A stretch of DNA of 64,000 bases. It comes from an uncultured Gammaproteobacteria bacterium. GTDB taxonomy: Bacteria > Patescibacteriota > Microgenomatia > UBA8517. Where the stretch lies: NCBI GenBank assembly GCA_964494885.1, contig CAZBTH010000003.1:5983-69982 (forward strand), written 5' to 3'. Positions 23,237 to 53,416 of the stretch are shown here, in pieces. Made by a program: the position numbers and the translations under genes. Every line of letters starts with the position of its first letter. Position 1 is the first letter of the stretch. The notes below the pieces were generated by a model that saw only the letters and a program-made list of their open reading frames with translations, had not been told where the DNA came from and did no database searches.

Positions 23237-23250
23237 TACTTAAATCTTGA

Positions 23251-23345: not shown

Positions 23346-23374
23346 TTGACATACCATGTCTATAGGATTATACT
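23346..23374 (+). promoter_or_regulatory. Sigma70 promoter
   Basis: TTGACA-N17-TATACT, about 18 nt upstream of the ATG at 23392. Confidence 0.6.
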
Positions 23375-23391
23375 GCCGGCAAGTCAAAAAT

Positions 23392-24405
23392 ATGGCAAAA
23401 CCCGAGGAATCAGACAATAGCCAACAAGGTGAACTAGAAGGTGAACTAGTGATAGATGTCACCCCACTTAATCAAGCCGAAGAGGATTCGATTGAGGTGG
23501 CCAATCCTTCAAGAATGCGCAAATTGACTGGTGAGGAAATTAAATCACTAGGTCTTCCCGAAACAGTAGCCCCATTAATAACAAGCGCTGTCAGAAAATC
23601 AAAAAAAGGCCCAGACAAGCTCATCTATCTCCTTAGAACTGGTGAAGGAAGCGTTTTTGAAATGGATGAAAGGCATCCGATGGTCCAGGAAATGCAGATT
23701 AAGGCCGCCGGTGCTGCAATCGACACTTTTGAGACTGTAACCCCACTTCAAACGGCAAATGCGATCAAAAATGCAATTAGTCAATTTGGATATACTTTCG
23801 ATGGAGGGCCGCTTCAAGCTTGGGATTTTGCAATAAAAGCGATGGATAAGATGATCGAGTTCCAAAATAAACAATTACAAATTCATCAGATAAATGTGAT
23901 GCAAGCAGCAACAGTACAACTTCAATCGGACATAAGTCTTGGCCTCGCCGGATATTTGACTCTTCCACCGCTTAGAAAACGTGCAGCAGACATATTAATT
24001 CAACTAGGTCTTGCGGCCGCTGTTAAAAACTATTCTGGCCAAGACACTCTAGATGCGGCCGATAGACTTGGAAAAATAAACCTTCTTTTCGAACAGATGA
24101 CACAAGAGGCGGCCACTGCAAAAGCGCAGGGGAAGGCTGACCGGGCATATCTCGCTGCCGATAAGGCAAAAACATTTATCGGAGACATACTCGCACAAGG
24201 AAACGAAAGTACTATCGCCTTTTCTAAAACTTTGATTGGTTTTGTATTTGGAGACGACCATCAAGACGAAGGTGTGATAACGGCAACACTGAACAAAGCT
24301 GGGGAGTCGGGTCAAAAACTTCTTGCCCTTATACAAGGGTCGGGTCAGGGTATAAATGGTTTTTTCAAAAATTTGTTTAATAAAGGTGGAGGAGCACGAC
24401 CTTGA
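23392..24405 (+). CDS. Soluble alpha-helical hypothetical protein (island gene 5)
   Basis: ORF starts MAKPEESDN... The track start at 23356 lies inside the promoter. Confidence 0.55.
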   Translation: MAKPEESDNSQQGELEGELVIDVTPLNQAEEDSIEVANPSRMRKLTGEEIKSLGLPETVAPLITSAVRKSKKGPDKLIYLLRTGEGSVFEMDERHPMVQEMQIKAAGAAIDTFETVTPLQTANAIKNAISQFGYTFDGGPLQAWDFAIKAMDKMIEFQNKQLQIHQINVMQAATVQLQSDISLGLAGYLTLPPLRKRAADILIQLGLAAAVKNYSGQDTLDAADRLGKINLLFEQMTQEAATAKAQGKADRAYLAADKAKTFIGDILAQGNESTIAFSKTLIGFVFGDDHQDEGVITATLNKAGESGQKLLALIQGSGQGINGFFKNLFNKGGGARP

Positions 24406-24520
24406 CCGAAAAGGCCGAGATGGAAAATAACAGTCCCACTCTTGCAATCCCCTAATAATAATCCTACAATCCCCCTGCAACTTAACATTACCCTGAAAAG
24501 GGAATAAAAAGGAGAATCTT

Positions 24521-24955
24521 ATGAACGACCTGATTTGGTATTTGGTCTTATCAATTGCCGGTGCTGTAGGCTTTTTCATCGCGATCTTCATGCCTTTTTT
24601 GTGTGAGATCAAGAAAACAAGACTGGAGATGGAAAAGAAACGCGCGTTACGGGCGAAAAATCCGATTTCTTTCGGCCTCAATTATTTCTTTGACGAAAAC
24701 GACAGAATTGAGGCTGTCGTCACTGACATCGACTATGAAGCCGGAGAGTTATCTATCGACGTCACCTTGCATGTAGCAGGTGACGACACCATCCTAAGTG
24801 CCCCGAACGACAGTGATTTGAGCAATGTCAGACTGTCGGTAAGGCACGCAGACGGAATAGTCGAAGCGCTATCGTTTGACATTGCAAATGACAAACCTGT
24901 CGCCTTTGACGGATGGGACATTGTAATAGACGACGTTCTTGCCAAAACTGGCTAG
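24521..24955 (+). CDS. Membrane-anchored hypothetical protein (island gene 6)
   Basis: AAAAGGAG SD. N-terminal TM helix. Confidence 0.55.
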   Translation: MNDLIWYLVLSIAGAVGFFIAIFMPFLCEIKKTRLEMEKKRALRAKNPISFGLNYFFDENDRIEAVVTDIDYEAGELSIDVTLHVAGDDTILSAPNDSDLSNVRLSVRHADGIVEALSFDIANDKPVAFDGWDIVIDDVLAKTG

Positions 24956-24978
24956 GTCGTTTTCTTAAAGGAGACATT

Positions 24979-25362
24979 ATGCCATTCAAAACCTGGTCAG
25001 CTCTGATATTTTTGACGTTCGTGCTTGCAATATTTGTGATAACGCCGTTATGCTACGCTATCGGCGATAAAAAGGCCGAAACCGAACTATTGAACAGAGA
25101 GTTTACTGTTTTCGCCTCGGTTGTCAACAACACTGAAAAAACGCAAATCGGAACAATTCAGGCCAATTCGGTATCTGGAGTTTGGGAATTTGGATATATT
25201 GGGTATGTGTCTGGTCCAATCCAGCTTGACAACGGCTTTAATCTTACATCGGAACAGGGTGGTTACATTCTTACAAAAGAGAACGTTCCAAACAAGGTTT
25301 ATTTGACAGTCGGTACCGTAAAAGGATGGCAGATAGTTTACGCTAATCCAATTCTTCCATAG
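24979..25362 (+). CDS. Signal-anchored or secreted hypothetical protein (island gene 7)
   Basis: AAAGGAG SD. N-terminal hydrophobic signal MPFKTWSALIFLTFVLAIFVITPLCYA. Confidence 0.55.
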   Translation: MPFKTWSALIFLTFVLAIFVITPLCYAIGDKKAETELLNREFTVFASVVNNTEKTQIGTIQANSVSGVWEFGYIGYVSGPIQLDNGFNLTSEQGGYILTKENVPNKVYLTVGTVKGWQIVYANPILP

Positions 25363-25376
25363 GATGAAAGTCAACA

Positions 25377-25437
25377 AGAGCAGCGCTAAATCACCCAAAA
25401 GGTGAATCCTAACAAAGGACGCTGCTCTTTTTTTTGG
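25377..25437 (+). terminator. Rho-independent terminator with a long loop
   Basis: AGAGCAGCG ... CGCTGCTCT stem followed by a run of 9 T. Confidence 0.7.
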
Positions 25438-25476
25438 TTATTGCCAACCCCAAAAGCCCGGGACTACAATCCAAGT

Positions 25477-26001
25477 ATGCCGGGAGATCATGTAAAGTCC
25501 AGCCACCGCCTAATCCAAAGTTTTGAGGCAGACCAGCTCAAGAATCGTCCAAAATTCATACAAATTGCAGACCGATTAACTTTGTTGTTTGGGAGCATTA
25601 GTTTTTTTACTCTTAATGCCTTGCTTTTTATTGTTTGGATAGCAATCAATACAGGGTCCGTCCCACTTATACCGGTCTTTGACCCCTACCCTTTTATTCT
25701 TTTGACTATGTTTGTTTCGCTTGAGGCAATTTTTCTTTCCATAATCGTTCTTATGAGCCAAAACAGACAGGGGCACATTTTTACCCTCCGCGAGGAACTT
25801 GATATGCAGGTTAATCTCCTGGCAGAACGCGAAATAACTATGTCACTTAAAATTTTGAAGCTGATGGCAAACAAAATGGGAGTAAAAATTAAGGATAAAG
25901 AACTGGGCGAGATGGTTAAAGAAACCGATATTTCTTATATCCAAAGAGAAATACAGGAACAAATTCAGGAAAGAAAACGTCTTTCCAAAAATACAAAATA
26001 A
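25477..26001 (+). CDS. DUF1003-family membrane protein (paralog of 19612-20124)
   Basis: Aligns throughout with the 19612 ORF, including DPYPF...LMSQNRQ. The start at MPGDHV aligns with the paralog start. Confidence 0.65.
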   Translation: MPGDHVKSSHRLIQSFEADQLKNRPKFIQIADRLTLLFGSISFFTLNALLFIVWIAINTGSVPLIPVFDPYPFILLTMFVSLEAIFLSIIVLMSQNRQGHIFTLREELDMQVNLLAEREITMSLKILKLMANKMGVKIKDKELGEMVKETDISYIQREIQEQIQERKRLSKNTK

Positions 26002-38973: not shown

Positions 38974-39726
38974 TTGAGTTTTGAGTATATACCCAAACAA
39001 TCTAGGTTTGCAAATTTCAGTACTTGTCATATACTTTTAGAAGATATGCAATTTGTTTCACCTGTTTTGGCCGTCATCACTGTTGTCCTTGCTTTTGTAA
39101 TCTCGGTCAGTCCGCTTTCGAGCTACGGCCTGCAAATTACGGCTTTAATGATTGTCATTTACATCGGAACTTCATTTCTGATAAGAAAAGGTGCTCTCCC
39201 CGGAAGTATTAAGGTCACAATGGATGTTATTATCTTTTCCCTTTCTGTTTCTCTTTTACTTTTTACCACAGGAGGATTTAATTCGCCGGTTTTCTTTTTA
39301 AGTTATTTTTTGCTTTTTGGGGTTTCGCTTTTTTCCTCCCCAATTACCGCAACGGCAATTACAATAACCTTCGCCCTGCTTTTTGTTGTCTCACCCAAAC
39401 AGGATTTCTGGATCGATCTACTCCAAATCGGATCATTATTGGCCATTGCGCCCTTGTCCGTCCTCTTTGGAAAACAGTATCTAAAAGTGCTGGAGGATAA
39501 AAAGATGATTACAGGGCTTTCCCAGAAAATTCAAAAGAATAAAGTTGATGTAGAGGCTTGGACCGAGGGAGATTTTAGAAGACGGGTACTCCGAATTCAG
39601 GATTATCTGCAAAAGCTTCTTAACGACCCCGGAGTCGAAACCGACAAAAAGGAAAGAATCAAGTCTTTGTACAGACAGATTTATGACTTATTTTTGAGCG
39701 GAAGAACGATGGAGAAAAATGTTTAA
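38974..39726 (+). CDS. Polytopic membrane protein with a cytoplasmic C-terminal tail
   Basis: About 5 TM helices. The start may be 39046 (MQFVSP). Confidence 0.5.
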   Translation: MSFEYIPKQSRFANFSTCHILLEDMQFVSPVLAVITVVLAFVISVSPLSSYGLQITALMIVIYIGTSFLIRKGALPGSIKVTMDVIIFSLSVSLLLFTTGGFNSPVFFLSYFLLFGVSLFSSPITATAITITFALLFVVSPKQDFWIDLLQIGSLLAIAPLSVLFGKQYLKVLEDKKMITGLSQKIQKNKVDVEAWTEGDFRRRVLRIQDYLQKLLNDPGVETDKKERIKSLYRQIYDLFLSGRTMEKNV

Positions 39727-40465
39727 TGATATGTTGAAGTTTGTCCTCATTTTTTTTGTGTTCTCTCTATTCTCTATTCTCTATTCGCTCTTCGCTGTAC
39801 CCGTGCTCGGCCAAGCTGAAATTACATCCCCGAATTATATTATTCAGATGCCAAATTTAAATTCCGGTGCCGGACTCCCCACATCCAGTAATTACAAGGT
39901 CAGTTCAACAATAGGTCAAACTGCCCCAGGGCTATTTTCTTCCGCAGGCTATCGCGTTAAATCGGGATTCCAATACATCTATTCAATAATTCCATTCTCT
40001 TTTACGGTTTCCTCGACTTCGATTAATTTCGGAAGCTTGATTGCCCAAACCCCGTCTACAGCCACAAACACATTAACTGTGAGTAGTGGTGGCGCTGGTG
40101 GATATCAAGTTAAAGCTTCAGAAAATAATCCCCTAAAAATTGGCAGTACTGGAACCACAATCCCTGACACAAACTGTGACATCTCCTGCAGTGAGACCAC
40201 GGCCGGAGTCTGGACTTCGTCTTCCAGGTACGGTTTTGGGTTTAACATGTCCGGAGACGATATTCCGGCTGATTTTACCAACTCAACTTACTACCGTCAG
40301 TTTGCTAATAGAGATGGAGCCGAAAGCCCCCAAATTGTGATGTCGTCGATTTATGTAGGAACAGGCAGACAGTCAACGGTAGCGTACAAAGTAAATATTT
40401 CCGGTATTCAACCGGCGGGTGTTTACAATAATATGATTACATATACAGCTATACCAAGCTACTAA
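39719..40465 (+). CDS. Secreted protein, paralog family A (shared Cys-containing C-terminal domain)
   Basis: N-terminal signal. The C-terminal region (C..C.ETTAG.WT...YGFG...SSIYV...QPAGVY...YTA) matches 41499-42998. Confidence 0.6.
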   Translation: MFNDMLKFVLIFFVFSLFSILYSLFAVPVLGQAEITSPNYIIQMPNLNSGAGLPTSSNYKVSSTIGQTAPGLFSSAGYRVKSGFQYIYSIIPFSFTVSSTSINFGSLIAQTPSTATNTLTVSSGGAGGYQVKASENNPLKIGSTGTTIPDTNCDISCSETTAGVWTSSSRYGFGFNMSGDDIPADFTNSTYYRQFANRDGAESPQIVMSSIYVGTGRQSTVAYKVNISGIQPAGVYNNMITYTAIPSY

Positions 40466-40466
40466 T

Positions 40467-41435
40467 ATGCAAATCTACAAATCTACAAATCTACAAATTA
40501 CAAATAAATTAATTAATTCCAAATTTCAAATATTTATTTGCTTATTTGCTTATTTGCTTATTTGCTTATTTATTGTGCCTAGCCTGGCCTACGGCCAGGA
40601 GGTTTCCCTTTCCATTTCCCCTCCTTTAACGGAAATTGCGATTCAGCCCGGTAAGGATATTAGTCAAACGATTACTGTTAAAAATGATGGTGTTCCGGTA
40701 GTTGTTGTCGCCAAAATGATGCCGTTTGTACCCCTTGATACAAACGGACATGTAGAATTAATCGAGGATCAAACTTCTATTGACGCTTTCTCTTCCTGGT
40801 TTTACTTTGACGAACGCCCCACTCCGCTCGGAGTAAACGGGATTCACCAATACATTATAAAAATTTCTCCCCCGAAATCGGCAGAACTTAGAGACTATTA
40901 CTTTACTTTTGTAGTAGAAGTGCAAAACAATAATAATTTGGAAGTCGGAGTAAATAATACTCAATCCCAAGCAAGAATTGGGGCAAACATATTATTAACC
41001 GCAACCAATGACGGCAACCCGCAAAAAAATGTCTCGATCGTTAAATTTACGGCGCCACGCGTTATCGATTCATTCTCCGGTTTTACCTACCAGGTACTTC
41101 TGGGTAATTCCGGATCAGGGTTCTTTAAACCGGTCGGCAGGATTACAGTCGACCAGATTTTTGGCACGACCACAACATTCAACCTAGCTCCTCTTAACGT
41201 CCTTGTGGGAAGCGAGCGGGAAATTGGTTGCCTTGATGGGCAAGAAATAATTCCTTGTAAACTCCCCGGAAAGTTTTTAATCGGTATTTATAGGGCCAAC
41301 TTAAGTTTTACTGTTGACGGGGTAGGAGAAAGTCACGAAAAACAAATTTACACAGTGGCATTTCCGTTTACTATCCTTTTGGGGCTTGCAACTATAGTGA
41401 TCACTTACGGCATAATAAGAAGACTAAATCCTTAA
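40467..41435 (+). CDS. Cell-surface protein, paralog family B (signal peptide, C-terminal TM anchor)
   Basis: N-terminal MQIYKSTNLQI encoded by 9-nt tandem repeats. The C-terminus has a hydrophobic anchor then RRLNP. Confidence 0.6.
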   Translation: MQIYKSTNLQITNKLINSKFQIFICLFAYLLICLFIVPSLAYGQEVSLSISPPLTEIAIQPGKDISQTITVKNDGVPVVVVAKMMPFVPLDTNGHVELIEDQTSIDAFSSWFYFDERPTPLGVNGIHQYIIKISPPKSAELRDYYFTFVVEVQNNNNLEVGVNNTQSQARIGANILLTATNDGNPQKNVSIVKFTAPRVIDSFSGFTYQVLLGNSGSGFFKPVGRITVDQIFGTTTTFNLAPLNVLVGSEREIGCLDGQEIIPCKLPGKFLIGIYRANLSFTVDGVGESHEKQIYTVAFPFTILLGLATIVITYGIIRRLNP

Positions 41436-41498
41436 TAAATTCAATTTTTTTAATCATATTGTTGACAATAACATGCAGCAGTATGAGAATAATAATAT

Positions 41499-42998
41499 AT
41501 GAACATTAATAGACGGGTATTTGTTTTTTTACCTTTTATTTTTATTGCAACTTTTTTTGCTTCATCGGCCATATCAATTAATAGTGCATACGCCTCAACG
41601 ATGACTTCCGCTTCTGCTACAATGAGCAACTCCAGAATGTCATTTAAGGCGCCTATTAGTTCCGGTTCGGCCGGGAGTTCGCTAGTTACAATAAGTGGCG
41701 CAGTTCCCGATACAACAACAAATCATTTATTCCCCGGAGATGCTGTTTGTTTTACAGATGCAGGCAACAACGTTTGTAGAGATAACACAACATATACAAT
41801 AGCCAATGTACCATCAACAACCACTTTCAATGTAACTACACCGCTTACAACAGCGCTGACAGCAACAGACTATGCAGTTGCTTCGCAATCGGGAACTCTA
41901 ACAATTACAGCAACAACAGTTAACCAGGTTCCCATAGGTGGAAAACTTATCATCACCATTCCGGCTAACGATGGAAATTCTACAGCTAAAAATAATGATG
42001 GAATGCCTGATAGCGCGGCAAGTATTGCCTTAAACGGTTTTGATTTAAGTAGTTTTGCAGTTGCAAGAGCAACTGTAACGGGTGATTCCTGTACTGCCGC
42101 AAATTGGGGCACATCGGGGACCGCAACAGAGTTCACAACCGGCGGCGGCGGAACAACAGATACCACAATTTCCTGGACAAGAGCAACCTCCATATGTGCC
42201 GCAGGTAGTGTTCTTACAATTTCTATTACGGGAATTATCAACCCCGCTCCAATCACAGGACACACTCAAGGAACAGCTGATGTGTATGGCATAACGGTAA
42301 CAACCACAGACAGCTCATCAAATACAATCGATTCGGTTGTTCCAAGAGTTGCACCGGTTGAAGCAGTTCTTATTTCGGCTACAGTTGATGAAAGTTTGAC
42401 TCTTACCATCGCGGGGCTTACAGGAGGCGCTCAAACATATTGTGGTAGTCAGACTTATGTAACAAGTACCGCGACTTCAATTCCGTGGAGTACACAAACC
42501 GGTGGTGCCGGATTTAAATATTCAGCTCAGCAATTGACGGTCAGTACAAACGCCGCATCGGGTTACACTGTGACTCTTCAGGAAAATGATCAAATGGGTA
42601 AAAATGGAAACACTTGCACGGGCACAGCACCTTCTTCCGGAGAATTTACTTTTAGTGCAGGAACTTGCATCAGAGATACCGTTTGTACGGTTTCGGCTTG
42701 CAGTGAATCAACCGCCGGAGATTGGACAACTGCAACAAATTACGGTCTCGGTTATTCACTGGCTTCCCAAAGCGGATCCGATGCCCCCTTCTATTACAAT
42801 GAAAAGAACAGAACATACAGCGCTAAACAATTGGCGGATGTCACACAAGGCGGCGAAACGGCACAATCAATTATGAGCAACTCTGCTGCAGTGTCTGCAA
42901 GCAGTATTTATGTTTGCTATACTTTAAGCATTCCCGGTACACAGCCATCCGGTTATTATTACAATATAGCAAAGTACACAGCAACAGCAACCTTTTAA
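41499..42998 (+). CDS. Secreted Thr/Ser/Ala-rich protein, paralog family A
   Basis: Signal peptide. C-terminal domain shared with 39719-40465. Confidence 0.6.
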   Translation: MNINRRVFVFLPFIFIATFFASSAISINSAYASTMTSASATMSNSRMSFKAPISSGSAGSSLVTISGAVPDTTTNHLFPGDAVCFTDAGNNVCRDNTTYTIANVPSTTTFNVTTPLTTALTATDYAVASQSGTLTITATTVNQVPIGGKLIITIPANDGNSTAKNNDGMPDSAASIALNGFDLSSFAVARATVTGDSCTAANWGTSGTATEFTTGGGGTTDTTISWTRATSICAAGSVLTISITGIINPAPITGHTQGTADVYGITVTTTDSSSNTIDSVVPRVAPVEAVLISATVDESLTLTIAGLTGGAQTYCGSQTYVTSTATSIPWSTQTGGAGFKYSAQQLTVSTNAASGYTVTLQENDQMGKNGNTCTGTAPSSGEFTFSAGTCIRDTVCTVSACSESTAGDWTTATNYGLGYSLASQSGSDAPFYYNEKNRTYSAKQLADVTQGGETAQSIMSNSAAVSASSIYVCYTLSIPGTQPSGYYYNIAKYTATATF

Positions 42999-43021
42999 TT
43001 TAAATAAATAAATCTGCCCAA

Positions 43022-44107
43022 ATGAAAATCTACAAATCTACAAATCTACAAATAAGCAAATTCACACAAGTGATGGTTCTAGCATTTGTTTATTTGCTTA
43101 CTAGTTTATTTGCTTATTCCGTAGTCAAGGCTCAGGACATTCTTCCCCTTACCGTTGTTCCCCCTAAACAAGAAATATTGGTCAATCCGGGTGAAAAGTT
43201 TACCACTACTGTCAAATACCTTAATCAAAGTAGCTCCCCCGTAAACGGAACTGTTAGCGTTCTCGATTTTGTTGTGGAAGATAGTGTTGGGACTCCCGTA
43301 TTCTTAGATAACCCGACGGTGGTTGGCACAACGACAATATCAGCAAAATATTCAGCTGCAAAGTGGATCAGTTTCCCGACAGAAAACGTGACGATTGCAG
43401 GAGGTGCCAATATCGCCGTGCCGGTTACGATCAATGTTCCAAAAAATGCAGCCGCCGGGGGACGTTACGCAGCAATTTTGTTCCAACCCACTGTCAATCA
43501 AGCCGAAAATGGCCAGGAAGGAACGGCCATAACTCCTACTGCAATCAGATTAGCCTCTCTAATTTATATTAGGATTGCAGGACCAATCACGGAAAAAGCC
43601 CGCATCATCGATTTCCAGGCACCAAAGTTTTTGGAATATGGGCCGATCGGTATCTCAACAACAATTCTAAATGAAGGAAGTTACCACATTACTCCCAAGG
43701 GTAATGTCACATTGAGAGATATGTTTGGTCGAGTGATAAGCAATTCCCCATTGGATATAAAGAACATTTTTCCAGGCACCACCAGAGTTTATGACAACAA
43801 TATCGGATCAAGATTAATGCTTGGTAAATTTACAGCCACCCTAAACGCCACCTATGGTGAAAGGGAACAGCTTATTACATCTACCCTCGTTATCTGGTTA
43901 TTTCCATGGAAGGCTGCACTCGCGATCACTCTTGCAATCATCATCGTTATTCTCTTAATCAAAATGTGGTACAAGAGAGTTACCAAAAAGGAAGAAAGAT
44001 TGGCCGAAGAGCTCAAGGAGGAAACAAGCGAACTTGAGGCATTGAAAGCAAAGTTTAAAGATCAAATTAGCAATGACAAGCCGGAAGTCCAAAACCCCCA
44101 ACAGTGA
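43022..44107 (+). CDS. Cell-surface protein, paralog family B
   Basis: N-terminal MKIYKSTNLQI shared with 40467. C-terminal TM helix then a charged tail. Confidence 0.6.
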   Translation: MKIYKSTNLQISKFTQVMVLAFVYLLTSLFAYSVVKAQDILPLTVVPPKQEILVNPGEKFTTTVKYLNQSSSPVNGTVSVLDFVVEDSVGTPVFLDNPTVVGTTTISAKYSAAKWISFPTENVTIAGGANIAVPVTINVPKNAAAGGRYAAILFQPTVNQAENGQEGTAITPTAIRLASLIYIRIAGPITEKARIIDFQAPKFLEYGPIGISTTILNEGSYHITPKGNVTLRDMFGRVISNSPLDIKNIFPGTTRVYDNNIGSRLMLGKFTATLNATYGEREQLITSTLVIWLFPWKAALAITLAIIIVILLIKMWYKRVTKKEERLAEELKEETSELEALKAKFKDQISNDKPEVQNPQQ

Positions 44108-44125
44108 TAGCCTCGTGGGTTCCGA

Positions 44126-45043
44126 ATGAAAATTAAAAATTTTAAATTAAAAATTCGTCAGTCGATTATTATATTCCCCGCAATCATAGTCATTTTAACG
44201 CAGTTTGTTTTATTAAATGACGGTTTGTTCGTCTATGGGCAAACGTTACCGAATTATTCGATTACAGGGCCTTTGGTATCAATCTCCGCAAGTATCGGAT
44301 CTCCAATATTAAAACTTTGGGGATATGGCGCTCCCAATTCAAGAGTTGAACTTAGCGGTGATAAAGTCAGTGACTTTACATATACCAAAGTCGACGGTTA
44401 CTTTGAATTTTCAAAAACATATCTGCCACAAGCGACAGATATTTTCTACCCAGAGCTCTGCTTAACAGAGATTGACCAAACCGGGCGCGCTACCACTCCG
44501 ACCTGTATCCCCAGACTTCTCGCAACGAAAGATAGTTATAATATTGGTCCCGTGATTTTACCACCCACACTAAGTCTTACAGAAGGTGTTATTGACACCA
44601 CTGCGCAATCCGGAGCCAGCGGAATAACTATTCCAAACTCAGAAGTCAGGGTCGTTCTTGCCGAGGACAACAAAAACCTACGTCTCACAAATTTCAACCT
44701 CGTTAAGCCTGTGCTGGCCTATTACATTCCAAATTATACCATCAAATCGGATAGCCAGGGCCATTTCAGTTTTAATATGCCGGGAGTAAACCCTAATGGC
44801 TGGCGTGTCTTTGTTTTTACACACTATTCAGAAGAAGCCAGATCTCCAAAAAGTAATACTCTAAAGTTTGTGATAATTTCCCCTACCGTAAGCGCAATAG
44901 GAAATATCTGGACATTTATCCTTTCTTTGTTTACCCTACCATCACTTATCATTCTTGAAATTGTAGTAATTCTTTTGATCTTTGTGGGAGCCTTTCTGAA
45001 CCGAAGAGACAGAAAGAAAGTATCTCCGAATACTATTAAGTAG
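44126..45043 (+). CDS. Cell-surface protein with signal peptide and C-terminal TM anchor plus basic tail
   Basis: The C-terminus reads ...SLIILEIVVILLIFVGAFLNRRDRKK, a sortase- or exosortase-like tripartite anchor shape without a recognisable sorting motif. Confidence 0.5.
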   Translation: MKIKNFKLKIRQSIIIFPAIIVILTQFVLLNDGLFVYGQTLPNYSITGPLVSISASIGSPILKLWGYGAPNSRVELSGDKVSDFTYTKVDGYFEFSKTYLPQATDIFYPELCLTEIDQTGRATTPTCIPRLLATKDSYNIGPVILPPTLSLTEGVIDTTAQSGASGITIPNSEVRVVLAEDNKNLRLTNFNLVKPVLAYYIPNYTIKSDSQGHFSFNMPGVNPNGWRVFVFTHYSEEARSPKSNTLKFVIISPTVSAIGNIWTFILSLFTLPSLIILEIVVILLIFVGAFLNRRDRKKVSPNTIK

Positions 45044-45076: not shown

Positions 45077-45547
45077 CTAGTCAAATGTGACCGTGGTCTG
45101 CTGGATCAGGTTTATTCCGTCGACTGCGGCTTGAATTATATAAAGGCCGGTTGAAGATTCAGAGGAGATATCAAAAGTGGCCCTCCCCTGAGGGTCTGTA
45201 ACCGGCTGAATTGCCATAACCTGTAACAAATTGCCGCTACCGACAACAACTGTTTTTCCGGAAATTCCCAGGCCACGGTTATCTAAAATAAAAACTGTTA
45301 TTCTAATCTTTTCTCCCCCTGTTTTAGCTCTTAACGGCGAGGCAAAGACATATGAATTTTCCAGAGATAAGTCTTGAGAACCTCCGGATTGGGTTACAGA
45401 AGAAGTCAGAGAATATGCGGAACTTCTAAATAACTGCGGGCCGCGTATAAAATATAATATTAAGATAAGCACAAGCAGCAAAACAACAATAACAATAAGA
45501 GTATAGATCGCATACTTTGGCCACCTAGGCAAATTATTTTCATTCAT
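45077..45547 (-). CDS. Membrane-anchored protein with a bacterial Ig-like (Big/invasin-like) domain
   Basis: TM helix, then KIRITVFILDNRGLGISGKTVVV...ATFDISSESSTGLYIIQAAVDG. Confidence 0.5.
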   Translation of the reverse strand: MNENNLPRWPKYAIYTLIVIVVLLLVLILILYFIRGPQLFRSSAYSLTSSVTQSGGSQDLSLENSYVFASPLRAKTGGEKIRITVFILDNRGLGISGKTVVVGSGNLLQVMAIQPVTDPQGRATFDISSESSTGLYIIQAAVDGINLIQQTTVTFD

Positions 45548-46087
45548 GATATAATTAATACTAAGCTTAATACATACGCATTTGCAAGCATCTAAAAAGT
45601 TAAACCTCACTCCCCTGCCTCCGGTAAATATAATAGCCAAAAGTTCGGTCTAAAAGGAGGGTAATTTTTCCTAGCACTCATTTTCTCCATCTGCTAATCA
45701 CAGCCGTATCGCCGAAGTATAAAAATATAATATAAAATTATTTAAGCAGAGGCTGCAATCGAACATTTTTATAGAGACGTTCTTCTAAAACGATTACATT
45801 CTCCGCAAAAAAATTTGGCAGTAAGTAATAAACGCAGTTTTCCGCAAACTAAACTCCATGCCTGTTTTTTTGGAAGAAAACAGGCATTTATAAACATTAT
45901 AAACGTTATAAAATTTATAAATATTATATTTTCGTGCGGAAAAGACGTGCGTTAATTATACTACAAGTACTGTGAAAGTAAATTCTAATATTTAAAAGGG
46001 ATGATATGGTAAATACCCTTGACAGGCTTGAATAATATTTTAATAATAGTCTAATTAGTATAATTTGTATAATCTAGCCTTAATAAC

Positions 46088-46603
46088 ATGCTCACCAACT
46101 CAATCGATTCGACTCAAAAAAACTTCTTAAAATACCTAGACACTCTTGGTTTATCCCCCAAAACGCATAAAAACTACAGAAGTGATCTCAACCATTTTAT
46201 TGACTGGCTAATATTACACATCAAATCAATGGGATCATACGTTGATACCCTGACTGAGACCGTCCCTTTTTTGAACAAAGACATACCTTTGAAATATAAA
46301 TCGTTCTTAACAGAAAACAATACTCCAATCAAAACAATTAACCGACGCCTCTCCACACTAAGACATTTAACCAGATATTTTGTGATTTCGAATCTAATTA
46401 CCACGGATATTATGGAGGATATTGAAAATATAAGCTCAGGGAATAAGGTAATAAAAAATATATCAGCTCCCATAGTTGATGCATTCCGAATGCATCTTGA
46501 AACCGAAAAAGTTTCTAAAAACACCGTCAAAAATTATGTAAGCGATATTAGACAATTTTTGTCATGGCTAGAAAAAACAAATTCGTCAAATCTGACCAGT
46601 TAG
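46088..46603 (+). CDS. Integrase-type SAM-like (core-binding) domain repeats; probably the frameshifted N-terminus of the following giant ORF
   Basis: FLKYLDTLGLSPKTHKNYRSDLNHFIDWL...TINRRLSTLRHLTRYFV matches the phage-integrase N-terminal SAM-like domain. A second copy starts at IVDAFRMHLETEKVSKNTVKNYVSDIRQFLSWLEK and is completed in the next ORF. Confidence 0.6.
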   Translation: MLTNSIDSTQKNFLKYLDTLGLSPKTHKNYRSDLNHFIDWLILHIKSMGSYVDTLTETVPFLNKDIPLKYKSFLTENNTPIKTINRRLSTLRHLTRYFVISNLITTDIMEDIENISSGNKVIKNISAPIVDAFRMHLETEKVSKNTVKNYVSDIRQFLSWLEKTNSSNLTS

Positions 46604-46613
46604 TCTAATTTAC

Positions 46614-49600
46614 ATGGACAAACTACCAAAACTAACATCGAAAATAATCAAATCCTATCAAAATGAGATTGCCAGAAGTGATTCGGCCGCAACCGCAAAG
46701 AGAAAAATAGTTTCTTTGAAAAAATTTCTTGATTGGGCAAAAACCAAAGGCCTTATAGATATAAATTTGGAAGAGACAATCATTACTCAGGCTAAAAACG
46801 AAACAAAATTCCCCGCAAAAAAAGCGTTAAATATCAGATTCCAGAACTTATACAAAAGATATCGCAATATACCAGGAACTTCTTATTTGAATATTGCAAT
46901 ACTTGTAATCCTATCCTCCACCTTAGGACTCGGTATATACAATCAATTCTTTAAAAACGCCACAAACCCATTTGCTGCAACGTCTTTAGTTCGACCTAAC
47001 CGCTATCTTTCTTTTCAGGGCAGATTAACTAATCAATTTTTGAATCCGGTTACAGCTGTAACAAGTGTAGTTTTTACTCTATATGACGCGGCAAGCTCCG
47101 GTACCACGCTTTGGACCGGCACCTGTAATGTAACTCCGGATACGGATGGGGTTTTTTCAACCCTTCTTGGAAGCGACTGCGGTTCGGAGATTTCCAGTAG
47201 TGTTTTTTCTGACAATGCCAGTGTTTGGCTGGGAGTTAAAGTCGCAGCAGACGCTGAGGCCACCCCCAGAATCCAGATTGCAACTGTTGCCTATGCCCTA
47301 AATTCGGAAACTCTTCAGGGATACCCGGCCTCTTCAAGTGCAACAATTAACACAGTGCCCGTGGTCAACAACTCAGGACAAATTGTCTTGGCGGTGAGCT
47401 CCCCTAAAATTCAATCCACGACAGGTACCTTTGCAATCGAAGGGCAGGCCATAACAATACAAACTCCAAGTGCATCAAATGGTAATGTTACTATAGCACC
47501 GGATGGCACGGGACAGCTTAACTTGACATTTACAGGCGCCTCCCCGGGGTCTGGAACCGGAATGGTGAACGCAACCGACGCCAACTTAACCTCCGGTTCC
47601 TTGTATTACGGTTCGGTTGCTTCTGACGCATCAGGTTACAACCTTTTGCAGTTACAATCCGGATCCACTCTTTCCAATAAATTCGTAGTCGATTCAGCCG
47701 GAAACGCATCTGCATCGGGTGATTTAACTTTGGCGGGAGTTAGTTCGATCCAAACAACAACATTTAGTCCCCTTACCATTGGCGGAAGTACAACAGGAAA
47801 TATAGTACTATCACCATCAAACAATATCGCGGGGGGCAATGTTTCGCCTGGAGTTACAAATGTGACCGATCTAGGAACCGCTTCCCTCTTGTTTAGGAAT
47901 ATTTATGCAACAACTTTGTACCAAGGCGTCAACCAAGTCTGTGATGCCGGGGGTGGGGTTGCAGGATGCGCAGGCGCAAACTACTGGAGACTTGCCAATA
48001 ATGTCCTTTCCCCTATCCAAGTTGCATATGATTTGACAATCGGCGGAAGCGCAACAGGTAGCGCCTTCCAGGTTTATGCCGCAACGGGAAATGTGGCTTC
48101 AGCCGGAGTAGGACAATTTGGTAGTACCTCGGTGTCAACCTATTCGAGGTTTGGGTCAGCAACTACAGAGCATTCTCTTTCTTCAGCCAGCGATCTCTTG
48201 GTAAACGGAAAGTTGGAACTTAACGATACTCTCTTTCTCGACGGAGGAACAATTGCAAACTCTGCAGGCACGGGAACTATTACTTTTTCCCCTACACCAA
48301 CAACAGCCTCCAACGCCCTTTCCGCAAGCAACTGGCTTATAGAAAATACCGCCAATGTTGGTCAAGCGGCCCTTATGGTTAATCAGGTAAAAGGTGGGGA
48401 TATTTTTACAGCCTCTCAATCAGGAATTCCCGTATTTACGGTGGCCCACCTGGCAGGTACAGTGGCTAACGGCATAACTTTAACTGGTGCGGCTACAGGC
48501 AGCGGCCCAACCATAACAGCAACCGGTTCCGACACAAACATAGCACTTTCCATAGATTCAAAGGGTACCGGAGCATTAAATTTGAATAATACTGCAACAG
48601 GGGATATTCTCTTGGCAGGAGGAGTTGGAGCAACGGGATGCACACTAACCAACTCCACCGGCGCGCTTTCTTGCGCTGGAAACATATCAACAACTGCCAC
48701 AAGTGGAACTCAAGGCTGGTGGCAGCGTGTTGCCGGTAACCTATCTCCGATTAATCTTAATGATACTATTTCTGCCACCACCTCGGCCGCTACAGCCATG
48801 ACCATCACCCAAACCGGCGCTTTCGACGCTTTCTTGGTACAAGACGCGGCTGGTGACACCACTCCATTTGTCATCGACCAATCGGGCAACGTCGGCATTG
48901 GTGACACCACTCCAAGTTATTTACTTGATGTTGCAGGTACTCTTAATTCAACGGGAAGCACCACGCTTGGAACCGGAGCTTCTTCAGTTAATGTTATTGG
49001 TTCTACCACCACTCCAGGAACATTAACTTTACATGGAGCTACAACTCTAGACGACACTTTCACAGTATCTGGAAATAACTTAACATCTCTAGGAGGCAAT
49101 CTCACTCTTAGCGGTACCACAATTACCGCTTCCTCGCTTGCTACACTAACAACTTCATCTGCAGTTGCTTGGGGTGGGGCTACCGAGCTTACCTTTACTG
49201 CTGATAACGCAACTATCTATGGATCGAATGCTGCTAGTGGAAACCTTATTCTTGATGGGACTAGTAATGCTACAAAAACTTCCAGTTATGTGATTATCCA
49301 ACCAAATGGTGGCAACGTCGGAATCGGTACTTCTGCACCTACGGCTACATTAGAAATATTAGCTGATGTTGATACTCCTTCAGGTAACGCCATAGAGGTT
49401 CAAGCGGTCGAATCAGCTAATCTTAACGACCAAGATGCTGATGATATTACTTTCACAAATGCTACAACATGCTGGACATACGGTGCCGGCTGGGCTCGTT
49501 CTGGTGGGACGGCCCTTCATTCCGCGTTAGTAGGTACTGAAAATTTATCTTGCAATTTAACAGACGGCTATATTGATAATAATCAAATATATAGAATGAC

Positions 49601-51497
49601 TTTTGATATGGGAGGAAGAACAGCTGGCACTGTCACTCCAAAAGTTGGAACGGCAGCTCACGATGCAATTAGTGCTAATGGTTCATACGATCTTACCTTC
49701 GACGCTACAGCTAATAATACAGATATAATTTTTACTCCTGACATTAATTTTAACGGTTATATTGATAATGTTTATATCTATCGAAGAGCCGTCAATACTG
49801 TTATTTCTGATACTGGAAGAGTGGGTATTGGACGAGCAACACCTGCATACTTTCTTGATGTTTTGGCTCCGGAAAATGGAGTCATTGCCAGATTCTTAAG
49901 TGACAACACCACTGGTTGTACTTTGGCAACTGGAGGTACTATTTCTTGTACTTCAGATGTCCGGCTAAAACAGGATATTGAAGACACTTCTTTTGGCCTA
50001 GATACTATTATGAACTTAAGACCAGTAGATTTTAACTGGAAAAGCGGAGCTTCAATTTATAAAAACCTTGGTTTTATTGCCCAAGAAGTTGAAACGCTTA
50101 TCCCTAATCTGGTTAACGTTGATCAAGATAATGGTTACAAACAACTCAATACAACAGGGCTTATTCCTGTCCTCACAAAAGCTATACAAGAACAGCAAAT
50201 ACAAATTTCTACCCTCTCCACCCAACTCGCGGATTTAAAGATCAATTCTACAGGCGATATCACTTTATCCGGTAATCCAGTTTCCGGTTATACTGTCTCT
50301 ACTCCTATCGGCATTACTCAAAAAATTGGTGCTTTTGCCAATTTAGTTGCTGCAAATATACACGCAGGGGCGCTGATTACTGATGAACTGCTTACTGATA
50401 AACTGAATGCGGTTGTAGCAACAGTTCAAAAGCTGACAACTAATAGTTTAGCGGTTAAACTGATATCCCCTCTTCCTGATCAAACTGACGTTACAGTAAA
50501 ACTCGGAGGTGAGGCAACACCATCAGGAAAACTGGCGATTCAAAACTCACAAGGTGATGAAGTGGCTGCTATCGATTCGTCTGGCAACGCAACATTCTCC
50601 GGTACAGTAAACAGTAACCAGTTAACAGTAAACAGTGAAGCAACTATTTCCGGAACTCTTTTTGCAGACAACATAAAATCAAAAAGTCTGGATGAAATTC
50701 AAGCACTTTTGACAAAAGTCCAGACTGACCAGGGTCTTCTAAAGGACGCTCAAAGCTGGAACACCAACACCGCAACAAACTCAGCAACTCTCTCAGGTCT
50801 TTCCGCCAGTGATCTATATATAACAAACCAGGCCGCAATTAATTCACTGTCTATTTCTAAAACTTTAGCTGTCGGTTCTGATCTTGTATTTAGTTCCTCA
50901 GTCAACAGTGAACAGTCAACAGTGAACAGCATTGACACTTTGTCTGCTCCACTTCGGATTCAGAGTTTGACAATGGCACCAGTTGAGCTTATGGCCGGAC
51001 TTGTAACAATAGATACACACGGAAATGTTACGATCGGCGGAGACTTGAATGTAGCAGGCAGAATACACTCCTCCGGTCTAACCTTGCAAGGAACAAACTT
51101 ACAAGATGACAAAATTCTTAATCTCCAAAGTCAAACCGGAATCCTGGTCGCCTCGGTGGACGCAAGTGGATCGGCCGAATTCGAATCAGTTTATACTCCC
51201 CAACTTATTATTGCGGGGGCTGACGCAACAACCCCAGGTGCTGTGGTAAACGGAGCAACAACAACAAACTCAACAATCGGACATACGATAATACCGGCAG
51301 GAACAAATGAGATAACAATTATCAATCCCAAGGTTACCGACTATACCCTAATCTATGTGACACCAACCTCGTCAACCCAAAATAATGTATTATATGTAAA
51401 GAGCAAACAAAAAGGACAATTCACAGTTGGATTTGCAATCCCGATTGATACAGACGTCTCATTCAATTGGTGGATAGTCCAGGTACAAAAATGGTAA
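46614..51497 (+). CDS. Giant (1627 aa) membrane-anchored surface fibre protein with an internal S74 endosialidase-chaperone-like domain
   Basis: N-terminal SAM-like half-domain (SKIIKSYQNEIA...SLKKFLDWAKTKGLI), TM helix, Thr/Gly/Ser/Ala-rich beta-rich repeats. SDVRLKQDIEDTSFGLDTIMNLRPVDFNWKSGASIYKNLGFIAQEVETLIPNLV...GYKQLNTTGLIPVLTKAIQEQ matches the S74 intramolecular chaperone domain. Confidence 0.7.
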   Translation: MDKLPKLTSKIIKSYQNEIARSDSAATAKRKIVSLKKFLDWAKTKGLIDINLEETIITQAKNETKFPAKKALNIRFQNLYKRYRNIPGTSYLNIAILVILSSTLGLGIYNQFFKNATNPFAATSLVRPNRYLSFQGRLTNQFLNPVTAVTSVVFTLYDAASSGTTLWTGTCNVTPDTDGVFSTLLGSDCGSEISSSVFSDNASVWLGVKVAADAEATPRIQIATVAYALNSETLQGYPASSSATINTVPVVNNSGQIVLAVSSPKIQSTTGTFAIEGQAITIQTPSASNGNVTIAPDGTGQLNLTFTGASPGSGTGMVNATDANLTSGSLYYGSVASDASGYNLLQLQSGSTLSNKFVVDSAGNASASGDLTLAGVSSIQTTTFSPLTIGGSTTGNIVLSPSNNIAGGNVSPGVTNVTDLGTASLLFRNIYATTLYQGVNQVCDAGGGVAGCAGANYWRLANNVLSPIQVAYDLTIGGSATGSAFQVYAATGNVASAGVGQFGSTSVSTYSRFGSATTEHSLSSASDLLVNGKLELNDTLFLDGGTIANSAGTGTITFSPTPTTASNALSASNWLIENTANVGQAALMVNQVKGGDIFTASQSGIPVFTVAHLAGTVANGITLTGAATGSGPTITATGSDTNIALSIDSKGTGALNLNNTATGDILLAGGVGATGCTLTNSTGALSCAGNISTTATSGTQGWWQRVAGNLSPINLNDTISATTSAATAMTITQTGAFDAFLVQDAAGDTTPFVIDQSGNVGIGDTTPSYLLDVAGTLNSTGSTTLGTGASSVNVIGSTTTPGTLTLHGATTLDDTFTVSGNNLTSLGGNLTLSGTTITASSLATLTTSSAVAWGGATELTFTADNATIYGSNAASGNLILDGTSNATKTSSYVIIQPNGGNVGIGTSAPTATLEILADVDTPSGNAIEVQAVESANLNDQDADDITFTNATTCWTYGAGWARSGGTALHSALVGTENLSCNLTDGYIDNNQIYRMTFDMGGRTAGTVTPKVGTAAHDAISANGSYDLTFDATANNTDIIFTPDINFNGYIDNVYIYRRAVNTVISDTGRVGIGRATPAYFLDVLAPENGVIARFLSDNTTGCTLATGGTISCTSDVRLKQDIEDTSFGLDTIMNLRPVDFNWKSGASIYKNLGFIAQEVETLIPNLVNVDQDNGYKQLNTTGLIPVLTKAIQEQQIQISTLSTQLADLKINSTGDITLSGNPVSGYTVSTPIGITQKIGAFANLVAANIHAGALITDELLTDKLNAVVATVQKLTTNSLAVKLISPLPDQTDVTVKLGGEATPSGKLAIQNSQGDEVAAIDSSGNATFSGTVNSNQLTVNSEATISGTLFADNIKSKSLDEIQALLTKVQTDQGLLKDAQSWNTNTATNSATLSGLSASDLYITNQAAINSLSISKTLAVGSDLVFSSSVNSEQSTVNSIDTLSAPLRIQSLTMAPVELMAGLVTIDTHGNVTIGGDLNVAGRIHSSGLTLQGTNLQDDKILNLQSQTGILVASVDASGSAEFESVYTPQLIIAGADATTPGAVVNGATTTNSTIGHTIIPAGTNEITIINPKVTDYTLIYVTPTSSTQNNVLYVKSKQKGQFTVGFAIPIDTDVSFNWWIVQVQKW

Positions 51498-53416
51498 AAA
51501 CATTAGAAGAAATCCAAAAATACATCCTTTACATAATAATAGCGATATTCCCTATTTTTATATTCATTAGCTCGACCTCACCCGAAGTTCTTTCTAAATT
51601 GATATTGCTCGCAATCGGCATAACTATCGTCATGGCAACTTGGATCATTAGAATGATCATAACCGGCAACATATCTTTCCATACAGGCAAATTTGATCTA
51701 GGAGTTCTTCTTATAACCCTCGCTTATGTTCTTTCGGGGATATTTAGGACCAATAACAAACCTGAGGCTTTCTTTATGCCCGGTACAGCCTCTTTTGTGG
51801 TTGCTCTGGCGATAATTTATTTCTTAATAAATCAACTGGATAAAAAAGCTAAAACAGAGTCTTTAGTTTCATTTTTTACTTCCGGTATATTCCTTTCTTT
51901 ATCCGTAATCTTTAGCGAACTTGAAATATTTACAAAAATTCCTCAACTTCCCGCATTTATAAAAAGTGTGTCATTTAACCCACTCGGAGGAATTTTACCG
52001 TCAATAATCTATCTGGTTCCGACGGCGCTTATCGGGATTTCGTTAATTATAAAGGACAGTGATATCGTCAAAAGGGTTTTTTGGATTGTGGCAAACGCCT
52101 TAGTTGTTATGGCTATGATAATTCTGATCGGAAAGTCATTCCCCGGAAATGTCCAATCACCGAAATTTCCAAGCCTACAGACTTCTTGGGAGGTTGCAGT
52201 TGGAACTGTTGCAAAAAACCCGATTTTTGGAATAGGTGCGGGAAATTACTTAACCGCGTTCAATCTTTATCGCCCTGTTACTTATAATCAAACAGATCTC
52301 TGGTCAGTTAAGTTTTCAACAGCAAGCAATTTTTATCTGACTACGATCACTGAAACCGGTTTATTAGGATTGGCCACCTTGGCCTTTTTACTGTTAAGTA
52401 TTCTCAGATTCTTTGCGCACTCCCTGACTGCAAAAAACATGAATGAGGCATTAAGTGAAGGTCTGGAAAAGCTGGCTATTGCCGCCATTGTTATAATCCT
52501 GGCATTTTACCCCGCCTCCCCCATATTTGTGATCTTTCCGCTTTTTGTTCTTTTGGGTGTATTTTCGAAATCGGAAACCAAAACTTTTACTGCCTCAAAT
52601 ACAAAATTTGCAACAATTACGATTGGAATTATTTTGGGAATAGGAGTCGCTCTTGCCAATTTCTTTGGAGCCAAGGCGGTCATTGCCGAAGCCACATTTA
52701 AAAAATCCCTTGACTCTCTCAGTAAAAATGACGCAAAACAAACTTTTGATTTAATGCAAAAGTCAATACAAGGAAACTCCGGAATTGACAGATATCACGC
52801 CTCCCTCGCCCAGGTTGACATGGCTCTTGCACAATCAATCGCAAACAAGAAAGACATTACAGATTTCGACAAAAATACAATTACCCAACTGGTACAGCAG
52901 GCAATCACAGAAGGTAAAGCAACTGTTGCCCTCAACCCCGAAAGATCGGGCAACTGGGAGGTGTTGGCACAGGTATATCGAAGTGTAATGCCATTTGCTA
53001 CCGGTGCCGATCAATTCACGATTCAATCTTATTCTCAGGCAATAGCATTAGATCCAATAAATCCAAATCTACGAATAGCATTGGGTGGTGTTTATTACGC
53101 CCAGGGGCGCTACGACGATGCTGTCGATGTCTTTAAGCTTGCCATTCTCGCAAAACCGGACCTTGCTAACGCCCATTACAATTTGGCAATGACCTATAAG
53201 GCAAAGAGGGAATATGCCAAAGCAATAACCGAGATGAATTTGGTCCTATCTCTGGTTGCCAAAGATTCAGACGACTACAAATTGGCAAAAAGTGAACTCG
53301 ATAATTTGATGAAAGATAAACCGGTTTCTGTCAATACTGTCGACGGGCAGGGTCAGTTGACTGCCCCACAATCTGTAAATCCCAGCAATATCAAGCCACC
53401 AATTCCCCTTCCCTGA
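51491..53416 (+). CDS. O-antigen ligase/polymerase-family (Wzy_C-like) membrane protein with C-terminal TPR repeats
   Basis: Many TM helices. NPIFGIGAGNYL is a Wzy_C-like loop. C-terminal TPR repeats (AHYNLAMTYKAKREYAKAI). The ATG overlaps the stop of the giant ORF. Confidence 0.65.
   Translation: MVKTLEEIQKYILYIIIAIFPIFIFISSTSPEVLSKLILLAIGITIVMATWIIRMIITGNISFHTGKFDLGVLLITLAYVLSGIFRTNNKPEAFFMPGTASFVVALAIIYFLINQLDKKAKTESLVSFFTSGIFLSLSVIFSELEIFTKIPQLPAFIKSVSFNPLGGILPSIIYLVPTALIGISLIIKDSDIVKRVFWIVANALVVMAMIILIGKSFPGNVQSPKFPSLQTSWEVAVGTVAKNPIFGIGAGNYLTAFNLYRPVTYNQTDLWSVKFSTASNFYLTTITETGLLGLATLAFLLLSILRFFAHSLTAKNMNEALSEGLEKLAIAAIVIILAFYPASPIFVIFPLFVLLGVFSKSETKTFTASNTKFATITIGIILGIGVALANFFGAKAVIAEATFKKSLDSLSKNDAKQTFDLMQKSIQGNSGIDRYHASLAQVDMALAQSIANKKDITDFDKNTITQLVQQAITEGKATVALNPERSGNWEVLAQVYRSVMPFATGADQFTIQSYSQAIALDPINPNLRIALGGVYYAQGRYDDAVDVFKLAILAKPDLANAHYNLAMTYKAKREYAKAITEMNLVLSLVAKDSDDYKLAKSELDNLMKDKPVSVNTVDGQGQLTAPQSVNPSNIKPPIPLP

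Follow-up and report, generated by a model that had tools for sequence, protein, structure and literature searches.

The locus described here lies on contig CAZBTH010000003.1, within a window of 64 kb (the whole stretch of DNA that was analysed; all positions are window positions), and is identical to part of a contig from the groundwater metagenome SRR2177950. The source is an ultra-small groundwater bacterium, whose nearest named relatives are Candidatus Woesebacteria. Five genes on the forward strand form the core: A1 (39719-40465, 248 amino acids), a small secreted single-domain protein; B1 (40467-41435, 322 amino acids), a membrane-anchored partner; A2 (41499-42998, 499 amino acids), a large secreted two-domain protein; B2 (43022-44107, 361 amino acids), a second anchored partner; and C (44126-45043, 305 amino acids), a third anchored protein. 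Because these genes overlap or are spaced by only 1-63 nucleotides (nt), a single operon is indicated. A membrane-protein gene, U, lies on its 5′ side, a convergent gene, D, on its 3′ side, and the neighbourhood adjoins leuS/comEA/comEC. A first, sequence-only reading had distinguished two tandem modules of a secreted and an anchored protein, followed by a fifth anchored protein. The open reading frames (ORFs) lie as it described, and the two modules are paralogous: A1 and the C-terminal domain of A2 share 37% identity over 154 amino acids (E-value 4e-19), and B1 and B2 25% identity over 245 amino acids (E 9e-15). Signal peptides, C-terminal hydrophobic helices and basic tails, also noticed at that stage, are legible in the translations. 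Profile hidden Markov models (HMMs) of the three families detected no additional copies within the window. The locus is probably the Microgenomatia (Woesebacteria-like) version of the Pam pilus operon of the Candidate Phyla Radiation (CPR), i.e. an operon for an usher-less, chaperone-assisted donor-strand-exchange pilus.

The Pam pilus was described in Candidatus Mycosynbacter amalyticus, a member of the Saccharimonadia (Troman et al., bioRxiv 10.64898/2026.03.03.709456, 2026). Cryo-electron microscopy (cryo-EM) of its filaments identified the two-domain pilins PamA and PamB, which combine an N-terminal β-sandwich, a linker strand donated to the incomplete immunoglobulin (Ig)-like C-terminal domain of the neighbour, and paired cysteines; the donated linker and its site in the C-terminal domain are conserved (bioRxiv 10.64898/2026.03.03.709456). 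The pam operon also encodes PamT, a single-domain tip protein, the FimC/PapD-like chaperones PamC and PamD, each with a C-terminal transmembrane (TM) helix, and PamR, an RbmA-like tandem fibronectin type III (FnIII) protein that has a strand at its N-terminus and a helix at its C-terminus. Conserved in the neighbourhood of the operon are a gene for a tail-fibre-like protein and those for ATP synthase. In Microgenomatia (Roizmanbacteria), distant homologues of PamA were reached in that study via a language-model search only. Two models derived from the preprint, NF058579 (PamT) and NF058581 (Pam_pilin_C), are held in NCBIfam release 20 (June 2026), and the present locus was compared with that of M. 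amalyticus through these models and the published description.

Pilin-like proteins, anchored partners and their gene order

The most direct link to Pam pili is provided by A1. It matches NF058579 (‘CPR-type pilus protein PamT’) with E 5e-13 and 49 bits over model positions 6-241 of 241, and NF058581 (CPR_Pam_pilin_C, ‘Pam pilus system pilin subunit’) with E 2.2e-8 and 34.3 bits. These matches recur across the A1 family, where 49 of 64 members match Pam_pilin_C (best E 7.8e-12) and 43 of 64 match PamT (best E 5.9e-16); the homologues of A1 amount to 1021 cluster representatives at E<=1e-3. Homology of the A1 family to the Pam pilins is supported by these profiles, at scores that do not reach curated membership, and A1 itself reads as a distant homologue of PamT, not as an equivalog. 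The earlier statement that none of the proteins has an obvious family assignment is therefore out of date, although at the gathering score Pfam gives no family for A1, B1, A2 or C. The Cys-bearing C-terminal domain pointed out at the same time is confirmed as a family trait, with C153 and C157 nearly invariant among the relatives of A1 and ten cysteines 96-100% conserved among those of A2. Predicted to accept a donor strand and without a linker to donate, A1 is a candidate tip subunit.

A2 is the PamA-like protein of the locus and the candidate major subunit. Its AlphaFold2 (AF2) model (pLDDT 85.5) is all-β and comprises two domains, with a dip in confidence at residues 290-300. The N-terminal β-sandwich (∼33-280) is followed by a linker or donor strand (∼281-306) and a Cys-rich C-terminal pilin domain (∼312-499). 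The most conserved blocks of the family are the linker itself (281-300) and two C-terminal segments (361-370 and 481-499). Thus, A2 combines the features of a two-domain pilin, namely an N-terminal β-sandwich, one strand serving as linker and, C-terminally, an Ig-like domain with conserved cysteines and a predicted acceptor groove. Compared with the PDB by Foldseek, the model finds two-domain adhesins of chaperone-usher systems at the top (CfaE, FimH, CsuE and SafD). The homologues of A2 number more than 396, from Woese-, Roizman- and Microgenomates genomes, a Roizmanbacteria protein being 53% identical; a weak match to Pam_pilin_C is found in 7 of 56 family members. Searches of PDB sequences with A1, A2 and the A2-family profile gave nothing useful in the copy searched, which evidently was without the PamA/B entries (25PZ/25QA).

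The anchored partners open a second line of evidence. Both have a signal peptide and a TM helix, C-terminal in B1, which ends in an RR tail, and followed in B2 by a charged cytoplasmic tail of ∼45 amino acids. B1 matches the B-family HMM with E 7e-69. B2 matches the Pfam family WxLIP_PGBD (DUF916, PF06030) with E 0.004 and 17.5 bits, below the gathering score of 27.3, and the same family is matched by 28 of 49 B-family members at E<=0.01. When compared with the PDB, the B-family profile matches chains 9I25_C/9I1Y_A (EfmWxLIP1) with E 6e-6; entry 9I25 is the ‘WxLIP from Enterococcus faecium locus A bound to long WxL’. Nine WxL loci were gathered from Lactobacillales plasmids, eight of which gave WxLIP sequences for a profile. 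Aligned with these eight WxLIPs by hhalign, the B family yields a probability of 97.5% and E 8.2e-12 over 276 columns covering both domains and the TM helix; control alignments of unrelated family pairs gave P-values from 8e-4 to 0.27. The B family is thus homologous over its full length to the WxLIP/CscA proteins (DUF916-DUF3324-TM) of the WxL/Csc clusters of Firmicutes, and the same alignment suggests that B1 and B2 each contain two β-sandwich domains. Two domains and a C-terminal TM helix are also the build of PamC and PamD; for B1 and B2, chaperone activity is a prediction. The homology of the B family to WxLIP is robust and is a new element with respect to the searchable literature, the Pam preprint (bioRxiv 10.64898/2026.03.03.709456) being without mention of WxL or DUF916. 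In several Firmicutes loci the gene order is small WxL, WxLIP, large WxL, which is the order of A1, B1 and A2. Since the genes are adjacent, a pairing is suggested in which B1 serves A1 and B2 serves A2.

C consists of a signal peptide, a flexible N-terminal extension (∼37-58) with the motif VSISASIG, two Ig/FnIII-like domains, a TM helix and a basic tail. In its AF2 model (pLDDT 83), segments 37-47 and 49-53 fall below 50, the domains occupy residues 61-157 and 163-251, and a helix extends from 253 to 294, in agreement with the anchor noticed earlier. An N-terminal extension, two FnIII/Ig domains and a C-terminal helix are the elements of PamR, and C is a PamR-like candidate for terminator and anchor. 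Foldseek returns generic tandem-Ig matches, including RbmA (5g50_B, E 4e-5, and 4kkp_B), RbmA not being the top one. The extension VSISASIG and the A2 linker VLISATVD resemble each other in the alternation of hydrophobic residues, a likeness read by eye and carrying no statistics. An hhalign match of the C to the B family (E 4.9e-5) was given no weight, as it covers mostly the signal-peptide cleavage region with low similarity.

Gene order was surveyed by an A2-family scan of one genome per GTDB species, in which six-frame ORFs were classified by family HMMs and counts were restricted to the 44 loci having both 6-kb flanks. Of these 44 loci from different GTDB species, 33 have the full order (small pilin, anchored protein, large pilin, anchored protein, C), and for this reason the arrangement is far beyond chance. 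A large pilin is directly followed by an anchored protein in 43 loci, C follows the second chaperone candidate (order P-B-C) in 41, and D is present in 41. All loci with the conserved order belong to Microgenomatia-type CPR genomes; the scan did not reach M. amalyticus. One complete Patescibacteria genome (L003) contains one-to-one orthologues of U, A1, B1, A2, B2, C and D in the same order, with identities of 29-52% (35% for B1) and one interrupting transposase. In Woesebacteria CP066686 (L015), the same block stands between leuS and a giant tail-fibre-like gene. More widely, homologues of A1 and A2, all unnamed proteins, come from Woese-, Roizman-, Levy- and Gottesmanbacteria, Microgenomates and other Patescibacteria.

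Two further observations concern this distribution. Some Microgenomatia loci (L035, L084, L093 and L025) carry two large A2-type pilins in the order P-B-P, and several A2 homologues share a contig (for example P0019/P0034 and P0010/P0040), a situation reminiscent of PamA, PamB and PamE. In addition, the record titles of many GTDB representative metagenome-assembled genomes bearing the locus (L024, L025, L029, L033 and others) read ‘uncultured Gammaproteobacteria bacterium’ (TPA_asm binchicken), one refers to Omnitrophota and one to Nevskiaceae. Such titles are probably placeholders or mislabels, and not a sign of occurrence outside the CPR.

Relation to Pam pili and weighing of the alternatives

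Set beside the pam operon, the locus corresponds to it component by component, which supports the surface-appendage or adhesion locus proposed in the sequence-only reading. In both cases the host is a CPR bacterium, all components carry Sec signals and an usher is missing. A1 is a single-domain protein like PamT (HMM E 5e-13), A2 is a pilin of two domains whose linker is conserved and whose C-terminal domain is rich in Cys, PamC and PamD are matched in architecture and position by B1 and B2 (paralogous, with a C-terminal TM helix), and C is, like PamR, an anchored tandem-Ig protein with an N-terminal extension. A tail-fibre-like neighbour is likewise present (here at 46614-51497, with a Peptidase_S74 domain). 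The locus, laid out as two pilin-chaperone pairs followed by an anchor, therewith appears to belong to the recently described kind of Pam pili, as a divergent member from Microgenomatia. This strict pairing distinguishes it from the operon of M. amalyticus, as do its place beside leuS/comEA/comEC and its additional conserved partners, the membrane protein U and a Big_1 protein.

Other observations weigh against this assignment. The PamT score of A1 (49 bits) is far under the curated cutoff of 240, and its Pam_pilin_C score (34.3 bits) is under the cutoff of 55; A2 itself matches no Pam model of NCBIfam, and NCBIfam scans of B1, B2 and C, and of the B and C families, matched no Pam-named model. 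Similarity to the M. amalyticus system, compared through models and description, thus lies far under the NCBIfam cutoffs. The Foldseek matches of A2 and of C are generic, with low template-modelling scores. There is one large pilin here versus PamA, PamB and PamE in M. amalyticus, and no ATP synthase gene is found among the window ORFs scanned; in favour of the assignment, a reduced relative locus from Woykebacteria (L004) does abut an ATP synthase operon. Finally, filaments have been observed in no Microgenomatia organism. With these points taken into account, a Pam-type pilus operon is still considered the probable identity of the locus, given the homology, architecture and synteny established here.

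The WxL/Csc clusters of Lactobacillales and Listeria encode a small WxL protein, a large WxL protein, a WxLIP (CscA; DUF916+DUF3324+TM) and an LPXTG protein (Siezen 2006, PMC1534035; Hassan et al. 2023, PMC10599100; PDB 9I25, 9I1Y). By analogy, the locus could specify a non-filamentous surface complex, in which A1 and A2 would be monomeric adhesins of the wall or surface, permanently held on the cell by strand complementation from B1 and B2 and not polymerizing, with C and D as further anchored adhesins. The anchored proteins are indeed homologous along both domains as well as the TM helix (hhalign E 8.2e-12), the small protein is the shared domain alone whereas the large one carries the same domain C-terminally, and the gene order small, anchor, large is that of the L. 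plantarum, Enterococcus and Vagococcus loci. Moreover, the envelope is monoderm in both cases, and the β-sandwich of the partner is completed, in predicted or solved structures, by a strand from the anchor, which amounts to donor-strand complementation; a stable 1:1 complex would accord with one anchored partner for each secreted protein, and the complexes of Firmicutes are described as stable surface complexes, not as pili. However, A1 matches the models of Pam pilins, which have been observed as filaments by cryo-EM, and WxL complexes are not known to polymerize. The interdomain linker of A2 is among its most conserved segments, and a monomeric adhesin would not need it. C is a candidate PamR-like terminator, absent from the WxL loci examined, whose flexible extension (VSISASI) resembles the A2 linker (VLISATV) by eye. 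The locus contains two anchors versus one in WxL loci, and neither an LPXTG protein (the mark of CscD) nor, among the scanned neighbours, a sortase. Neither A1 nor A2 contains a W-x-L motif or matches Pfam PF13731, and the hhalign comparison of the secreted domain with the WxL domain (P 0.013) stays at control level. A WxL-type complex is consequently regarded as unlikely. The likeness to Gram-positive surface-complex loci without their diagnostic motifs, which had been remarked from the sequence, is nonetheless real, in that the WxLIP homology coexists with a lack of W-x-L, LPXTG, prepilin and PEP-CTERM motifs in the locus proteins.

A related idea, in which the pilin domain would be a WxL domain in disguise, was set aside after three hhalign tests. 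The A1/A2 domain compared with 10-17 WxL domains by hhalign gave P-values of 0.013-0.014 and a probability of 3%, the level of unrelated controls. A relaxed alignment of the two domains is collinear, although non-significant, placing GGYQV opposite the first GWxL motif and YxNxITYIAxP opposite the second.

Two broader alternatives fare worse. Unrelated secreted and anchored Ig-like adhesins, or parts of an envelope or S-layer, might share β-sandwich folds with no chaperone-subunit relation, as would befit generic Ig/FnIII matches of low template-modelling score and proteins (A1, B1, A2 and C) that reach no Pfam gathering score. This is very improbable in view of a strictly conserved alternating pilin-anchor order in dozens of species, the specific profile matches to Pam pilin models and WxLIP, and a gene spacing indicative of one operon. 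A type IV pilus or a sortase-assembled pilus of the Gram-positive kind comes to mind because type IV pili are known to serve CPR bacteria in contacting their hosts (discussion in bioRxiv 10.64898/2026.03.03.709456) and because the proteins are secreted, some of them anchored. Yet the N-termini are ordinary Sec signal peptides, regular-expression searches of the locus proteins found no class III prepilin signal (G|FTLxE) and no LPXTG, and no sortase, PilB/PilC or prepilin peptidase turned up when the locus and the genes next to it were scanned with Pfam. Both kinds of pilus are rejected as scarcely conceivable here, together with exosortase-type anchoring, as no PEP-CTERM motif was found in the locus proteins either. 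The sequence-only reading holds in this respect too, since profile searches assigned the proteins to no well-known family such as type IV pilins or S-layer homology (SLH) proteins.

Chaperone-usher pili (Pap, Fim, CFA/I and Csu) illustrate the principle that is proposed for the Pam-type operon, with subunits made of incomplete Ig domains, a two-domain chaperone and donor-strand exchange, and they supply the top structural matches of the A2 model (CfaE, FimH and CsuE). The likeness is limited to fold and principle, with no detectable sequence homology. Here there is neither an outer membrane nor an usher, the chaperone candidates are membrane-anchored and without a PapD match in Pfam, and the proposed donor strand is an interdomain linker instead of an N-terminal extension. 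The Pfam models for Usher and PapD_N/PapD_C match no locus protein at E<=1.

Flanking genes and octamer repeats

Upstream of A1 on the forward strand, U (38974-39726) encodes a polytopic membrane protein of 250 amino acids, with no assigned role. Since its stop codon overlaps the start of A1 by 8 nt, U probably opens the operon. No family is matched, the best hint in Pfam being a weak TgpA_N (E 0.055). Orthologues occupy the same position in the complete Patescibacteria genome L003 (29% identity, E 3e-40), in L014 and in Woesebacteria L015, and among 80 species loci at least 25 have U 5′ of the small pilin. The pilus system may include it as an unrecognized component. Within the operon, a promoter-like site on the forward strand (TTGACA-17-GAGAAT, 41462-41490, 10/12 consensus matches) sits in the 63-nt gap just 5′ of the A2 gene. 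The consensus scan returned 27 sites versus 21.9 expected; as a consensus match only, the site would fit a raised expression of the major subunit.

Downstream, D is convergent to the operon (reverse strand, ORF 45077-45640, likely ATG at 45547) and encodes an N-terminally anchored Big_1 membrane protein of the intimin/invasin Ig type. Its Pfam matches, Big_1 (E 1.7e-7, below the gathering score) and Invasin_D3 (E 4e-5), agree with the Ig-like membrane protein formerly placed after C. Next on the forward strand is a pair of genes for a 171-amino-acid protein with two Phage_int_SAM-like domains (46088-46603) and for the 1627-amino-acid Peptidase_S74 tail-fibre-like surface protein (46614-51497). 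The tail-fibre and SAM-like unit is fused in L003 (Phage_int_SAM + Gp34_trimer + Peptidase_S74) and in the Woykebacteria locus L004, and split into separate ORFs in the window and in L015; a BLASTP comparison with L004 suggests that the N-terminus of the 1627-amino-acid protein adjoins the SAM-like region. For a giant surface fibre, a domain of DNA-binding type at its cytoplasmic end is odd. The gene 3′ of the tail-fibre-like one (51467-53416, forward strand) encodes a membrane protein with Wzy_C (O-antigen-ligase/PglL-type; Pfam E 9.5e-6, below the gathering score) and TPR domains, and has the same position in L015. Because the supplement of the Pam paper reports a sugar-like density on Ser356 of PamA (bioRxiv 10.64898/2026.03.03.709456), this protein is, speculatively, a possible pilin O-glycosyltransferase.

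The N-termini of the two anchored proteins, MQIYKSTNLQI in B1 and MKIYKSTNLQI in B2, are nearly identical and encoded by (AAATCTAC)n octamer repeats, as the sequence-only reading had perceived. For B1, Tandem Repeats Finder (TRF) and the sequence delimit tandem octamers on the forward strand (40459-40571) that encode the n- and h-regions of the signal peptide: (CTACAAAT)x6 and, additionally inside the signal peptide, (TTATTTGC)x4.8, at positions 40459-40505 and 40534-40571. For B2, the N-terminus is encoded by (AAATCTAC)x3.5 (TRF, 43026-43053, forward strand). As the 8-nt unit is not a multiple of three, slippage would shift the reading frame. Phase variation through these repeats is nevertheless unsupported, their copy number being equal in L001 and L002, two assemblies of one sample, and in the relative L014, where the copy number of the B2 repeat is that of the window. 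The B1 orthologue of Woesebacteria CP066686 (L015, 7471-7600) has another repeat, of 7 nt, (TTTTTAC)x4. In the whole window TRF lists 87 rows, mostly with units of 7-9 nt.

Elsewhere in the window, an island richer in guanine and cytosine (19612-26001; 0.46 versus ∼0.40) contains ORFs for membrane or secreted proteins without Pfam match (20198-25362). It is flanked by genes for paralogous membrane proteins (19612-20124 and 25402-26001) and may be an inserted or duplicated segment.

Proposed assembly and significance

For a Pam-type operon in this organism, we infer strand complementation, polymerization, an order of subunits, filament assembly and adhesion to host cells. All five proteins would be exported by Sec, as their signal peptides suggest. 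B1 and B2 would stay tethered to the cytoplasmic membrane by their C-terminal helix and would catch pilins just after export by their incomplete Ig-like C-terminal domain, lending it a β-strand; this role is suggested by their homology to WxLIP, solved in complex with a WxL protein, and by the model of PamC and PamD. A1, which has an acceptor domain and no linker, would for that reason prime the filament as its tip. A2 subunits would then be added serially, the linker of each (∼281-306) displacing the chaperone strand from the groove of the preceding subunit. Finally, C would insert its flexible N-terminal extension into the last A2 and anchor the base of the fibre by its TM helix.

A wider and more tentative proposal, possible but by no means favoured, is that Pam pili and WxL/Csc clusters are two branches of one ancient monoderm system made of an anchored chaperone and an incomplete-Ig subunit. 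Under such shared ancestry, the C-terminal domain of Pam pilins may be a WxL domain minus its Trp-x-Leu signature, or the WxL domain a derived pilin domain. The chaperone half of the proposal is well supported, while the subunit half, which draws on architecture, gene order and a collinear, non-significant alignment, is unproven.

CPR bacteria presumably spend their lives attached to host cells, a lifestyle in which the filaments that make the first contact play a central part. Among CPR-specific filaments, the Pam pilus is the first to have a structure. Ordinary profile statistics, together with synteny over dozens of species, now indicate that Woesebacteria and Roizmanbacteria carry a complete, stereotyped operon (candidate tip pilin, chaperone, major pilin, chaperone and anchor), with coordinates assigned to each of its parts. 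The anchored chaperone candidates are tied to the WxLIP proteins of Gram-positive pathogens and probiotics, the function of which is still debated. If this link extends to the subunits, the WxL field would gain a mechanistic model, donor-strand complementation and exchange, and the Pam system an evolutionary origin. Should the shared ancestry be true, WxL proteins of enterococci, listeriae and lactobacilli would be able to undergo donor-strand exchange, possibly forming short fibres, and usher-less chaperone pili would be widespread in bacteria without an outer membrane.

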